This document shows positions 24,216 through 29,903 of a stretch of DNA of 64,000 bases, one piece after another. The position numbers and the translations under genes were made by a program. Every line of letters starts with the position of its first letter. The stretch's first letter is position 1. The notes under the pieces are model-generated. The model was not told where the DNA came from, did not search any database, and saw only the letters and a list, made by a program, of their open reading frames with translations. Origin of the DNA: an uncultured candidate division Zixibacteria bacterium (GTDB taxonomy: Bacteria; Zixibacteria; MSB-5A5; GN15; FEB-12); assembly GCA_963735035.1 (NCBI GenBank), contig CAVTJJ010000004.1, forward strand, positions 960,001-1,024,000, written 5' to 3'.

Positions 24216-24340
24216 CTGACAGAGTGCCTGGTGGCCCACCTGCTTGCAGGTGGGGGATAGACAGAAGCGACGGAAAGAATGTCGAAACCGTCCGAAGCGG
24301 CCTGGTTTCGACCTACAAGACAGTGGCACAGAAAGTACAT

Positions 24341-26371: not shown

Positions 26372-26830
26372 ATGATATTCAACGATTCGCTGTTGGTATT
26401 CGAAAACGAGATTCGTGAAAGAAGCCGCTGGCAGGCGTTTCTAGAAGTTCTCAAAAAGTACACGTTCGATCTGAGACCGATTCATCGATATCGCGGTCGC
26501 GTGACACTGATTGGTGATGTTCTCGGAATCGACATGCACCACGTCCACACCTCGGTCCCGCTCGTAATGAATATCCCTCTGCTGAGCATCGTTGGTCTGG
26601 ACATAGGGTACAACGACGTTCTTACCTCCCTCACGGTCCCCCGGTGGCACTGGCGGCTCGGACCCATTGGTGTGCGTTATGAAGACGAAAACGGAAAGGA
26701 TACCACGATCTACCTATTTGCAGCCTACGATCACGGATGGACTGTGAATCCGAATTGCAGGAATGACGATCTGTTCAAGGCTATGAGTAGCCGTATTATG
26801 GAGTTGAAGGCAAAGAAGAATCAGCCATGA
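26372..26830 (+). CDS. Hypothetical protein
   Basis: 152-aa ORF with a GAGG RBS, bounded by REP hairpins. Confidence 0.6.
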   Translation: MIFNDSLLVFENEIRERSRWQAFLEVLKKYTFDLRPIHRYRGRVTLIGDVLGIDMHHVHTSVPLVMNIPLLSIVGLDIGYNDVLTSLTVPRWHWRLGPIGVRYEDENGKDTTIYLFAAYDHGWTVNPNCRNDDLFKAMSSRIMELKAKKNQP

Positions 26831-26932
26831 GCTACCCAGATCGTCTAAGTAGCGTCATCGTCGGGTTGCTCGTGTCTCGCTTCGCGAGACCCTCGTGAAC
26901 CCGACCTACATGAACCTACGGCCAGTATGAAT

Positions 26933-26961
26933 GGCAGAACCACCAAGGGGTTCTGCCCTAC
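26933..26961 (-). repeat. GTAG-tagged REP GTAGGGCAGAACCCCTTGGTGGTTCTGCC
   Basis: Perfect 9-bp stem with a GTAG tag; relatives at 51491, 53952, 54223 (IS481-interrupted) and 55867. Confidence 0.85.
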
Positions 26962-27092
26962 GAACCTGCGACGATTTGTTTAATCCCACCCGCAAGTAAC
27001 TATGATACTGTTCGTGATTTGAGCCTCTGTTCGGACAAGGTATCGTATCGTGGTCTGAAGACAACGATAGATCCTTAGAACAGGAGGCTCAG

Positions 27093-28151
27093 ATGAGAAG
27101 GTACGAAGTTGGAGCGGAAGTGGGAAGTGCTGTTTTTGTTGGCGTGGATGTTCACAAGCGTCAGTGGTTTGTCACGGTGAGGACGTTAGAAGTGGAACTG
27201 TTCTGTGGCAGCATTAACGGGGATTGGGCGTCTTTGCGGTGTTTGCTGGATCGGTATGATCCTGGGTGTGTGTCCGTGGTTTACGAGGCGGGTTTTTCTG
27301 GTTTTTGGCTGCACGACTGTGTGGTAGCGTGGGGTGGTCAGTGCGTAGTAACGCCGCCGAGCTTGGTGCCGATGGCCTACGGTAATCGGGTGAAGACGGA
27401 CAAGCGGGATAGCCGGAAGCTGGCCTGGTTGCTGTCGTTAGGGTTGTTGAAGAAGGTCTGGGTTCCGGATGAGAGTCAGCGGGGTCACCGAGAGGTCTTA
27501 CGTCGTCGTCGTCAATTGGTTCAAGATCGGGTACGTCTTCAGAGTCGGATCAAATCGGAGTTGGCCTTATATGGTATTTCAGTGTGCAGTGGGACGGGTC
27601 GGTGGACCGGTCCGTTATTAGAGCGTCTGAGACAGGTGTGTTTGGCAGATGTCTGGGCTCAGGCGAGCTACGAGCGGTTGTTGGAGATGTACGATCTGGT
27701 AAGTAACCAGCTGGCGTTGCAGACACGACTGTTGCGGGAGTTGTCACGACTGCCACAGTATCGTGATCGAGTTCGGCTGTTAAGTAGCGTTCCCGGCATA
27801 GGGGTTATTACGGCGATGGCTCTGCTGTTGGAATTGCATGAGGTCGGTCGTTTTGGACGGGCTGAGCAATTGGCGGCTTATGTGGGACTGACACCTTCGC
27901 AGTATTCCAGCGGTGATCATGTCCGGATGGGTCGGATTACCGGCACGGGCAACAGCTATCTTCGGGGCTTGTTAGTGGAATCGTCCTGGATTGCCGTTCG
28001 GAAGGACCCACACTTACAACTGGTCTATAACCGGATCAAGCAACGTGCCGGCGGCAAACGAGCCATAGTGGCGGTAGCTCGACGACTGGTCTTGGCAGTC
28101 AGGCGGGTTCTGCTTGATAACGTTGCCTATGAGCCGTGTGCGGCCGCCTAA
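27093..28151 (+). CDS. IS110 family DEDD transposase/recombinase
   Basis: VFVGVDVHK, VYEAG, KTDKRDS, LSSVPGIG, YVGLTPSQYSSG, KRAIVAVARRL; AGGAGG RBS. Confidence 0.97.
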   Translation: MRRYEVGAEVGSAVFVGVDVHKRQWFVTVRTLEVELFCGSINGDWASLRCLLDRYDPGCVSVVYEAGFSGFWLHDCVVAWGGQCVVTPPSLVPMAYGNRVKTDKRDSRKLAWLLSLGLLKKVWVPDESQRGHREVLRRRRQLVQDRVRLQSRIKSELALYGISVCSGTGRWTGPLLERLRQVCLADVWAQASYERLLEMYDLVSNQLALQTRLLRELSRLPQYRDRVRLLSSVPGIGVITAMALLLELHEVGRFGRAEQLAAYVGLTPSQYSSGDHVRMGRITGTGNSYLRGLLVESSWIAVRKDPHLQLVYNRIKQRAGGKRAIVAVARRLVLAVRRVLLDNVAYEPCAAA

Positions 28152-28340
28152 GATAACCAAGGAGTCGGAACCGTACCAAGCTAACGCGAGAACAGCGACC
28201 CACCCGCTGTGGCTCGGGCCAACCGAGACCACGTCCGCAAGTCTGCTGCCTCGCCAGGTCACGAGCGGATACATTGCCTGTGGCGCTGCCAGTCAGCGAC
28301 CACGAATAGCAGACTGGTTCGAGTCCTATGCCTGAACAGA
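28152..28340 (+). ncRNA. Putative bridge/seek RNA of the IS110-family element
   Basis: About 190-nt non-coding end with two parallel loops. CCCACCCGCT and CCGCAAG match the target halves; ATAGCAG matches the donor junction. Boundaries approximate. Confidence 0.75.
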
Positions 28341-28525
28341 AAGCCCTTGACACAGTACATAGCAGCGGGTGGGCCACCCCACGTCGTTTCAGAGAATGTA
28401 ACAACCCACAGCAAGCTGTGGGGTACCCGATCCCTGCAGTCAATTTCTGTCACAAACGCAACCGCCGGGACCTTCAAAGAACCCGGCGGCGTAATTGTGT
28501 ATCGTCCGACTTGAGTGAATAGTCG

Positions 28526-28885
28526 TTACTGATCCAAACCGTCTACATCCGTATCAGGACGTGACCGCTCACTGGCAAACTCGCTGATCTCCTCCGGATC
28601 CTTGTCTTTTAGTTTCCCCTTGAACTTCTTCAACTGCACGATGATCTTCTCGGACGCCCCCGTCATCGCGGTGATCATGTCGTTGGTCTCGGCCTTCGCC
28701 GAAAGCATGTGAGCATGCACCTTCACCCGCAATTCGGCGGTGCGACGGTGCCGTTCGGCGTCGAGCACGTACTCGGCCGAAATTATCCGGTCAAAGAAGC
28801 GAGTCAGGCCGTCCATCTCCTCTTCCGCCTTGGCTCTGATTTCCGGCGTAAGGTCGAAATGACGAGCGGTTACTTTCTTCTGCAT
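28526..28885 (-). CDS. hpf: Ribosome hibernation promoting factor (HPF/RaiA)
   Basis: MQKKVTARHFDLTPEIR…QLKKFKGKL; AAGGAAG RBS; lies in the rpoN operon. Confidence 0.88.
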   Translation of the reverse strand: MQKKVTARHFDLTPEIRAKAEEEMDGLTRFFDRIISAEYVLDAERHRRTAELRVKVHAHMLSAKAETNDMITAMTGASEKIIVQLKKFKGKLKDKDPEEISEFASERSRPDTDVDGLDQ

Positions 28886-28916
28886 ACGTGACTTCCTTTC
28901 TGTGACCTCTATAAAT

Positions 28917-29903
28917 TCAATAAGTAGGATGGTCTTCAAAACAGTGTTCAGCAATAATAAAACGCCTCGTGCGCGTTCGTGATCGTATCACCAGCGAATG
29001 AGTCGTGGCCCCGTCCGGGCGGTAACAAACACCGTTCAGGACATCACCGTCGGTAATTCCGGTGGCAGCGAACATGACATTGTCGCTTCCGGCCAGGTCG
29101 TGGGTCCGGTAAACCCGCGCCAGGTCGGTGTACCCGGCCTGCCGAAGGTGGGAGCGCTCGTTCTCGTCGGTCGGAGCCAAGTGGCATTGTATCTCGCCGC
29201 CCAGGCAGCGCAGGGCCCCGGCCGCCAGCAGTCCGGCCGCCGAACTGCCCGTGCCCATGAGAATATCCACGCCGCTTCCGGGAATGGCCGTGGCGATAGC
29301 CGCCGCGACGTCGCCGTCCGGAATCAGGTGAATCCGCGCGCCGACCCGACGCACCTCGGTTATAAGGCCGGCGTGGCGTTCACGATCGAGTATTACCACG
29401 GTCAAATCCGCTACGGAGTAATGCAAAGCCTCGGCGACCCGGTATAGATTTTCTTCGATACTGCGGTTAATATCGATAGCCTGAGCCGCGGCCGGTCCGA
29501 CCGCCAGCTTATTTAAGTACTGCGATGGGGGGAGATGGAAGCTGCCCCGGGGCGCTATGGTTACTATGGCTAGCGCGTTGGAGCGCCCGAAGGCGACCGA
29601 GCGGGTGCATTCCAGGGCATCCAGGGCCAGATCGTAATCGTTGCCGCCGCCGGCACCGACTATTTCGCCGGTGTAAAGATGGGGCACCGTGCCCGGTTCA
29701 CCCTCACCCAAAGCTATTGATCCTGAGAATTCAATCCAGCCGAACGCCTTGTGCATAGCGTCGATAGCCGCCTGATCGGCTGCGATGGCATCGCCTTTGC
29801 CCATCCATCGGGAGGCGGCCAGCGCCGCGGCTTCCGTGACTCTTACCAATTCGAGGGCGAAATTGCGGTCCACCGTGATCTCATCCCGTGACCAAAGGGT
29901 CAC
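28917..29903 (-). CDS. glpX: Class II fructose-1,6-bisphosphatase (GlpX family), diverged
   Basis: ELVRVTEAAALAA, ADQAA, GEGE, LDRERH, DGDVAAAI, FAATGITDG. Confidence 0.88.
   Translation of the reverse strand: MTLWSRDEITVDRNFALELVRVTEAAALAASRWMGKGDAIAADQAAIDAMHKAFGWIEFSGSIALGEGEPGTVPHLYTGEIVGAGGGNDYDLALDALECTRSVAFGRSNALAIVTIAPRGSFHLPPSQYLNKLAVGPAAAQAIDINRSIEENLYRVAEALHYSVADLTVVILDRERHAGLITEVRRVGARIHLIPDGDVAAAIATAIPGSGVDILMGTGSSAAGLLAAGALRCLGGEIQCHLAPTDENERSHLRQAGYTDLARVYRTHDLAGSDNVMFAATGITDGDVLNGVCYRPDGATTHSLVIRSRTRTRRFIIAEHCFEDHPTY

Follow-up and report, generated by a model that had tools for sequence, protein, structure and literature searches.

Our work describes an insertion sequence of 1369 bp in the genome of an uncultured candidate division Zixibacteria bacterium. 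It lies in a stretch of 64,000 nucleotides to which we refer as the window (positions 960,001 to 1,024,000 of contig CAVTJJ010000004.1, assembly GCA_963735035.1), at window positions 26997-28365 and on the forward (+) strand, as do all features given below by window position. The element is very likely an intact member of the IS110 family with an IS1111-type layout, whose own guide RNA would specify the palindrome into which it is inserted; we put the probability of this reading, which comes from comparative sequence analysis, at about 0.9. It is carried by the anatomy of the element, by the identical targets of its copies, and by covariation among relatives, both within the RNA helices and between the guides and the flanks or right end of each element.

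An earlier note, made from the letters of the window, had proposed an IS110/IS1111 element with a guide RNA programmed against a repeated extragenic palindrome (REP). The strings and positions that it gave for the element, the two RNA modules and their stems are all present base for base, and so are the related hairpins near 24230 and 50789. Pfam and NCBIfam matches together with the IS1111-type layout bear out the family assignment, and a covariance model places the guide RNA where it had been expected, after the recombinase gene.

Target palindrome and guide words

The element separates the two halves of a palindrome. The left half, CCCACCCGCA plus the core AG (26995-26996), spans 26985-26996 and reads CCCACCCGCAAG; a second core AG closes the element at its right end (28364-28365), and the right half, CGGGTGGGCCACC, follows at 28366-28378, with CGGGTGGGCCACCC from 28366. 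In the 3.61 Mb assembly of 6 contigs, a DNA search recovered five full copies of the element, all in one orientation between CCCACCCGCAAG and CGGGTGGGCCACC, with the same 12 bases on the left, the same 13 bases on the right and AG at both joints. Hence site-specific insertion with a common core dinucleotide at both joints and no other duplication, a hallmark of the IS110 family, is seen in 5/5 full copies. The AG core and the palindromic target proposed in the earlier note are identical in all five, and no full copy sits in an unrelated target.

Four of the copies are 100% identical over 1369 bp. The fifth (C4:851859-853229) measures 1371 bp and has two 1-base insertions; the first directly precedes the ATG and the second falls within the 3' strand of the guide RNA's outer stem (window-equivalent about 28246). 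They reflect either sequencing errors or the onset of decay of this copy. A sixth match is partial, with 670 bases at the edge of a contig. There, contig 3 ends in a segment (C3:988514-989190) that duplicates the start of contig 4 (C4:3581-4418) with 98% identity, the left part of the element included, and the partial copy is most likely one locus assembled twice, through an assembly overlap of lower-quality sequence. Because this overlap looks like an assembly artefact, we count five copies and not six.

Two words in the non-coding end of the element match the target exactly. The 5' target guide CCCACCCGCT (28199-28208), eight bases followed by CT, is complementary to AG plus CGGGTGGG on the top strand to the right of the core. 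The 3' target guide CCGCAAG (28235-28241), five bases followed by the core AG, has the same sense as the left target half and equals its last 7 bases. Each expected guide word occurs a single time in the whole element. When the 214-nt non-coding end was shuffled 20,000 times with its dinucleotides preserved, 19 shuffles contained the 10-mer and 759 the 7-mer, and no shuffle contained both.

Relatives for a comparative analysis came mainly from metagenomes. A collection with one genome per species yielded only distant relatives, with 27-52% identity over the best segment (mostly 33-39%), and among annotated plasmid elements the closest, such as an ISEc45-family transposase, reach about 33-36% identity. 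In genomes of the same order, 8/160 (the own genome counted) carry a relative at an E-value of 1e-70 or better, with 50-66% identity. A search with an alignment of six order-level proteins then found 484 relatives in metagenomes, of which the best 80, with 53-90% identity, form the comparative set; protein identity in the whole set is 50-90%. Guide words were read from the covariance model alignment as the bases just 5' of hairpin 1 and the bases just 3' of hairpin 1 up to a conserved AG, and element ends were located by the conserved ACTATG on the left and by the element's own donor word on the right.

Across this family, the guides follow the flanks. The reverse complement of the 5' guide agrees with its own right flank at 5.58/8 positions, compared with 2.40/8 for non-self flanks (62/78 rows with a right flank, 60 of them non-redundant), and the 3' guide agrees with its own left flank at 4.375/5 positions, compared with 1.63/5 (67 rows with a left flank, 48 non-redundant); neither value was attained in 10,000 permutations. 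Position by position, the agreement of the 5' guide is 0.80-0.63 at +1 to +7, 0.45 at +8, 0.18 at +9 and 0.08 at +10, and that of the 3' guide is 1.0-0.75 at -1 to -5 and 0.17 at -6. Because the agreement drops past +8 and -5, the guide lengths of the family are 8 + 2 and 5 + 2, the very lengths that the earlier note had read from this one element. Its proposal to look for covariation between guides and flanks was thus answered positively, across about 60 distinct relatives.

The target of this element is a palindrome, which leaves CCCACCCGC, in this element taken alone, with two readings: it may complement the right half or repeat the left one. Many relatives have non-palindromic targets, for example TGGCAAG to the left and CTGTACGT to the right with the guide ACGTACAGCT, and the guides match there as well; therefore, the 5' guide complements the right side instead of copying the left. 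Related elements also illustrate how targets change. In a relative with 90% protein identity (L103), CCCCACCGCT replaces CCCACCCGCT and the flanks are ACCCACCGCAAG and CGGTGGGGCACC, so that two base changes retargeted the element. Another relative (G107) has the guide CCCACAGCT between flanks CCCACAGCAAG and CTGTGGGG; it shares this guide with G133, L122 and L109, and these elements lie in or beside palindromes of the type CACAGCAAG (left) and CTGTGGG (right). The guide of G051, CCCCACGGCT, fits a repeat of its own genome, CCCACGGCAAGCCGTGGGGCACC. For G033, whose element fills its whole contig, a search for the predicted target gave near matches only, in a different repeat family.

The own genome offers a further view of specificity. 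The restored 20-mer has 0 uninterrupted occurrences, and the eight distinct sites that differ from it at one base are all uninterrupted; the differing base belongs to the core (A to T) or to the right half, at positions 15, 16 (three sites), 19 (two sites) and 20. So the perfect sites are all filled and the near-perfect ones are not. This pattern fits a strict reading of the right half up to the eighth base; the empty sites alone prove nothing.

The palindrome resembles a REP. Its 13-base right half has 78 matches with at most one mismatch in the genome, the 20-mer has 42 matches within 3 changes on both strands, and the copy in the window lies between two convergent open reading frames, as is typical of short imperfect palindromes that are repeated many times in mostly intergenic positions. 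The palindrome thus belongs to a family with tens of members, and its naming as a REP in the earlier note is a resemblance: the genome has six loci for Y1 transposases (RAYT-like) by PF01797, for example C4:1466644-1466970 and C6:22391-22699, and a motif scan found no target palindrome within 1.5 kb of any of them. A different palindrome, GGTGGCCCACCATTTATGGTGGG, recurs in the genome, with one site about 2 kb from the C6 Y1-transposase locus. A second REP-like palindrome, CCCACAGCAAGCTGTGGGGTACC, is located at 28406-28428, 40 bases to the right of the element. It is of the type targeted in other genomes by related elements with the guide CCCACAGCT; we found no element with this guide in the present genome.

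Recombinase, guide RNA and element ends

The sole long open frame of the element (27093-28151) is open and intact and encodes a recombinase of 352 amino acids (aa). It matches PF01548 (1.4e-12; 48.1 bits, cut-off 29) and PF02371 (2.4e-25; 89.2 bits, cut-off 21.3), the DEDD_Tnp_IS110 and Transposase_20 domains that together mark the IS110 family, as well as the NCBI equivalog model NF033542, "IS110 family RNA-guided transposase" (226.7 bits, cut-off 140). A protein atlas likewise labels it "IS110 family". Residues D19, E65, D103, D106, S273 and G274 are invariant across 6 relatives, and by analogy D19, E65, D103, D106 and S273 would be catalytic-type residues; both the RuvC-like acidic residues and the motif serine of the family have their counterparts here. 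The segment GLTPSQYSSG aligns with GLTPRRYESG of ISCro4, in keeping with the serine motif G(L)-P----SG described for the family (PMC11187229). The C-terminal domain aligns to the transposases of IS621 and ISCro4 with an E-value of about 1e-11 (1.5e-11 for IS621); solved structures are those of these two distant relatives only, and residues 219-346 are the only part of the recombinase that can be aligned to IS621 by sequence.

Downstream of the gene, the covariance model matches 28189-28326 with 99.8 bits. It finds one match directly 3' of the recombinase gene in 78/88 sources, and its matches in the own genome, with 150 of 472 candidates scored, are the five copies alone, of which the 1371-bp copy scores 91 bits instead of 99.8. 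The model weakly detects the region in relatives with about 35-39% identity, with 28.5 bits in L061 and E-values of 0.01 or better in L014, L010, L025, L018 and L031. There was no match in three annotated plasmid elements (ISEc45-family, Citrobacter, Mycetohabitans), and so homology of the RNA scaffold to better-known elements is not demonstrated. In one relative (L176), a second, partial match at 1964-2062 comprises the donor-loop half (41.6 bits) and directly follows a complete element at its right end, perhaps as what remains of an earlier tandem copy.

The structure was derived from 39 aligned non-coding ends. RNAalifold on a plain MAFFT alignment recovered hairpin 2 only, because the loop length of hairpin 1 varies; therefore, we set three parts by hand (the outer stem, the base of hairpin 1 and hairpin 2) and verified them with pair counts. 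The three helices covary: 90.4% of the cells pair, compared with 34-55% after a shift of the 3' partners by 1-3 columns, 17/21 pairs changed on both sides, and 0/500 shuffles attained the observed values. The target-binding module (28186-28254) consists of an outer stem (28186-28196 with 28245-28254; 95% paired, 8/9 pairs changed on both sides in the 39 relatives), an internal loop with both target guides, and an inner hairpin. This hairpin 1 (28209-28232) is formed by GTGGCTCGG, the loop GCCAA and CCGAGACCAC with a bulged A; its basal pairs are paired in 79.7% of cells, and 3/4 of them changed on both sides. Hairpin 2 (28280-28303), with GTGGCGCTG, the loop CCAGT and CAGCGACCAC with a bulged A, is 92.3% paired with 6/8 pairs changed on both sides, and it is the one that RNAalifold recovers unguided. 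The element thus appears to have the structured non-coding RNA of the IS110 family, with loops that covary with target and donor.

On the donor side, the 3' donor guide ATAGCAG (28306-28312) equals the last 7 bases of the element (28359-28365). Its family form is ATAG-N-AG, and the one variable base is the same as the variable base of the right end in 62/63 relatives, counted among those whose right end was found without use of this base. The 5' donor segment TTGCCT (28274-28279; family form TTRC-N-T) is a candidate discontiguous guide for the core AG and the TAA of the left end. For 71 elements, we tallied which first four bases of this segment go with which first three of the left end: TTAC occurs with TAA in 43, TTGC with TAA in 18 and with CAA in 5, TTAA with TAA in 2, GTAC with TCA in 2, and TAAC with TCA in 1. 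A match of six pairs is possible in 66/71 elements if T pairs with the core A, N is bulged, C pairs with the core G, and R-T-T pair with the first three left-end bases; in the window, it includes one G-T wobble. The exceptions are the two elements with TTAA and TAA and the three with a TCA left end. A left end that begins with C is always accompanied by G in the 5' donor segment (5/5). These data suggest that the bulged six-pair match contributes to recognition of the left end; since the left end hardly varies, this pairing is a suggestion and no demonstration. The right donor guide of IS621 is described as pairing discontiguously too, nine RNA bases with seven donor bases, a parallel to the weak 5' donor segment of the present element (PMC11208160).

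The ends carry subterminal inverted repeats, CTATGATACTGT on the left (27000-27011, 3 bases from the end) and ACAGTACATAG on the right (28352-28362). CTATG(A)TACTGT on the left and CTATGTACTGT on the right match over 11 bases, with an extra A in the left copy, and in relatives the variable 7 bases of the left repeat agree with their own right repeat at 6.18/7 positions, compared with 4.0/7 for other elements. For the IS1111 group, such repeats are described as 7-17 bp (PMC11208160) and usually 11-13 bp (PMC11187229) long. The left repeat includes TATGAT (27001-27006), a putative -10 box, and the right end contains TTGACA (28347-28352), a putative -35 box. After joining of the right to the left end, these would be 17 bases apart, and exactly this spacing is seen in 49/56 distinct relatives with both ends. 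In the linear copy, a simple scan for sigma-70-like sequences gave no promoter, and the promoter TTGACA-17-TATGAT is predicted to form upon circularisation only. Junction promoters of this type have been described in the family, with ISPpu9 as an exception (PMC12288879). Within the leader of the recombinase mRNA (27015-27096), 27021-27033 pairs with 27079-27092 and would bury AGGAGG (27082-27087) and the ATG (fold -38.1 kcal/mol, z -5.40, 0/200 shuffles as good). The arms of this hairpin are also visible by eye in the leaders of four relatives (L063, L098, L099 and L101), and from the fold it is probably a translational brake.

Proposed mechanism and rival explanations

How might such an element move? 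According to our model, it encodes a DEDD/serine recombinase and a downstream guide RNA (bridge RNA, seekRNA) of about 140 nt with two internal loops. In the target loop, CCCACCCGCU would pair with the top strand to the right of the AG core and CCGCAAG with the bottom strand to the left of it, and together they would specify one variant of the repeated palindrome, CCCACCCGCA-AG-CGGGTGGG. In the donor loop, AUAGCAG would match the right end, and UUGCCU probably pairs discontiguously with the core and the first three bases of the left end. Recombination at both AG dinucleotides would release the element as a circle, with an expected circle joint of ...CATAGCAG followed by TAACTATG..., and this joint would create the TTGACA-17-TATGAT promoter to drive expression of the recombinase and the RNA. 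The complex of both would then bridge the circle joint and a free target, and the recombinase would exchange strands at AG. We infer RNA production, excision and insertion, and firing of the junction promoter from the anatomy and the comparative data.

Several observations weigh against this reading. All perfect targets are occupied, and the element may have no further destination in this genome. In one of the five copies, a single base is inserted into the outer RNA stem. Rfam has no family with a match in 26500-29000 at E-values up to 1. The single-sequence fold of 28152-28365, a check proposed in the earlier note, is not significant (z -1.22, 27/200 shuffles as good); hence the RNA structure rests on the comparative data, in which the helices do covary. 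The donor loop lacks a contiguous complement of the left end, as the earlier note had fairly cautioned in finding that the second donor guide matches the core only. This is probably no defect, as TTRC-N-T is kept family-wide and a one-base bulge allows pairing; the bulged pairing itself fails in the 3 elements with a TCA left end. The lone copy in G051 sits in poorly fitting flanks, with agreement at 5/7 positions of the 3' guide on the left (core included), and the right side is offset by 3 bases and has one mismatch. Finally, a search of public contigs, which contained pieces of the element from four sequencing runs, found neither a circle joint nor an emptied site; the 20 public runs were all available as contigs, and the best of them contains 0.46 of the sampled words. 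One joint that skips the element was not counted: it includes 12 foreign letters, one of its sides is 31 bases long, and only a small fraction of the words is present in its source run.

In the most serious rival explanation, the element is correctly identified and its population in this genome is spent or silent, with the five copies as relics of one recent burst. The absence of free perfect sites beside eight empty near-perfect ones, the linear element without a sigma-70-like promoter, the leader hairpin that buries the ribosome site (z -5.4) and the copy with two 1-base insertions would all agree with such a history. However, four copies that are 100% identical and have open frames point to very recent movement, and a promoter present in the circle only together with a closed leader is the usual control described for the family, and no sign of decay (PMC12288879). 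We consider this explanation improbable. A still smaller chance goes to a recombinase that reads the DNA hairpin shape of the palindrome, with the guide-like words being a captured repeat fragment without a role. The target is a near-perfect palindrome, so that CCCACCCGC also copies the left half of the repeat, and the close relatives (59-90% identity) are all found in GC-rich palindromes with a CAAG loop. Yet distant relatives with the same RNA scaffold occupy non-palindromic, AT-rich sites and their guides (for example ACGTACAGCT) still match; moreover, the guide words stand at fixed places in a covarying scaffold, and both guides track the flanks position by position, ending at +8 and -5. 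This makes the shape-reading recombinase very improbable. Finally, matches as short as 10 and 7 bases in GC-rich sequence might arise by chance, but both words together are absent from all 20,000 shuffles and the family-wide agreement was not attained in 10,000 permutations; on these grounds, we reject chance, and what probability it retains is negligible.

Beyond the guided insertion sequence itself, we hypothesize that the elements of this clade co-evolve with the REP families of their hosts, in that they fill the perfect sites of one variant and escape to the next by point mutation of the guide, and that they recognize their left end by the bulged six-pair match or by the inverted repeats in place of a contiguous guide. 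The guide rule set of the clade is compact, with 8 + 2 and 5 + 2 target guides, and in the subclade of 59-90% identity, one to three bases distinguish the target guides, and each guide fits the host's own variant of the CAAG-loop palindrome. This proposal is a tentative one that we regard as doubtful. If it is true, left-end recognition by a bulge or by inverted repeats would be a mode of donor recognition not yet described for the IS1111 type.

Relation to known elements and neighboring sequences

The assignment to IS1111 is one by layout, and most of the sequence features fit it. The non-coding region is longer downstream of the gene (214 bases after the stop) than upstream (96 bases before the ATG), with the RNA model match at 28189-28326, and within the RNA the top-strand match precedes the bottom-strand one, an order seen in all 78 aligned relatives. 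Both are described for the IS1111 type (PMC11187229); some IS110-type clades are also reported there to have a downstream non-coding region. In all, 4/6 features of the IS1111 group are present (the inverted repeats, the downstream RNA, the guide order and the family-wide domain pair), and one, the asymmetric terminal extensions, is absent; the sixth would be a place in the IS1111 clade of the ISfinder tree. If the core is assigned to the right end, the extensions are TAA (3 bp, left) and CAG (3 bp, right); if it is assigned to the left end, they measure 5 and 1 bp. The ISPa11 paper gives 7 (sometimes 6) bp for the left and 3 bp for the right extension of the IS1111 group (PMC11187229).

ISPa11, an IS1111 family element of Pseudomonas aeruginosa (Siddiquee et al. 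2024, PMC11187229), is described with a similar organization: a DEDD recombinase, a long downstream non-coding region, a seekRNA with the top-strand match 5' of the bottom-strand match, a REP target and subterminal inverted repeats. The likeness is one of layout, and the function of ISPa11 is experimental, whereas the evidence here is comparative only. The bridge RNA of IS621, an IS110 group element of Escherichia coli (Durrant et al. 2024, PMC11208160; 8wt6-8wt9), likewise has a target loop and a donor loop, with one guide per strand in each loop and the core within both guides. It differs in being located upstream, in the left end, with left guides preceding right ones, whereas here the RNA is downstream and the order is reversed (PMC11208160). 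IS621 also inserts into REPs (Choi et al. 2003).

ISPpu9 and ISPpu10 of Pseudomonas putida KT2440 are reported in several copies at one REP position, as here, with recombination at an AG that is invariant at both ends, and they too have a structured leader, which limits their translation (PMC12288879). Circular intermediates are described for them, and excision as a circle would be the expected route for the present element, too. ISPpu9 belongs to the IS110 group, is described as having no inverted repeats and has its RNA upstream; its circles are reported to lack a junction promoter, in contrast to the consensus-like one predicted here (PMC12288879). Natural retargeting between close relatives has been published for ISEc11/ISXne4 and ISEc21/ISMch6 (PMC11187229). 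REP targeting, AG cores and downstream guide RNAs are thus already in print (PMC11187229, PMC12288879).

Hence, the mechanism is not new. It was described in 2024, and the main traits seen here were likewise published in 2024-2025: REP targeting for ISPa11, IS621 and ISPpu9/10, the AG core for ISPpu9, and the downstream RNA. The core of IS621 is CT, and that of the element described here is AG. The element leaves current knowledge of the mechanism unchanged; it is a clean natural example of RNA-guided recombination in which the guide rules are legible directly from genomes. With these rules, the contrast of five filled perfect sites and eight empty one-mismatch sites, and a retargeted relative of 90% identity, it is a convenient small orthologue (352 aa, about 140 nt of RNA) alongside IS621-type tools, and its covariance model is ready for use.

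Two further observations concern the surroundings of the element. A GlpX gene neighbors it. At 26860-26910 there is a further inverted repeat, GTCGGGTT...AACCCGAC; in a freshwater-sediment run, numerous contigs match this segment alone and then diverge, and it is therefore a separate dispersed repeat.

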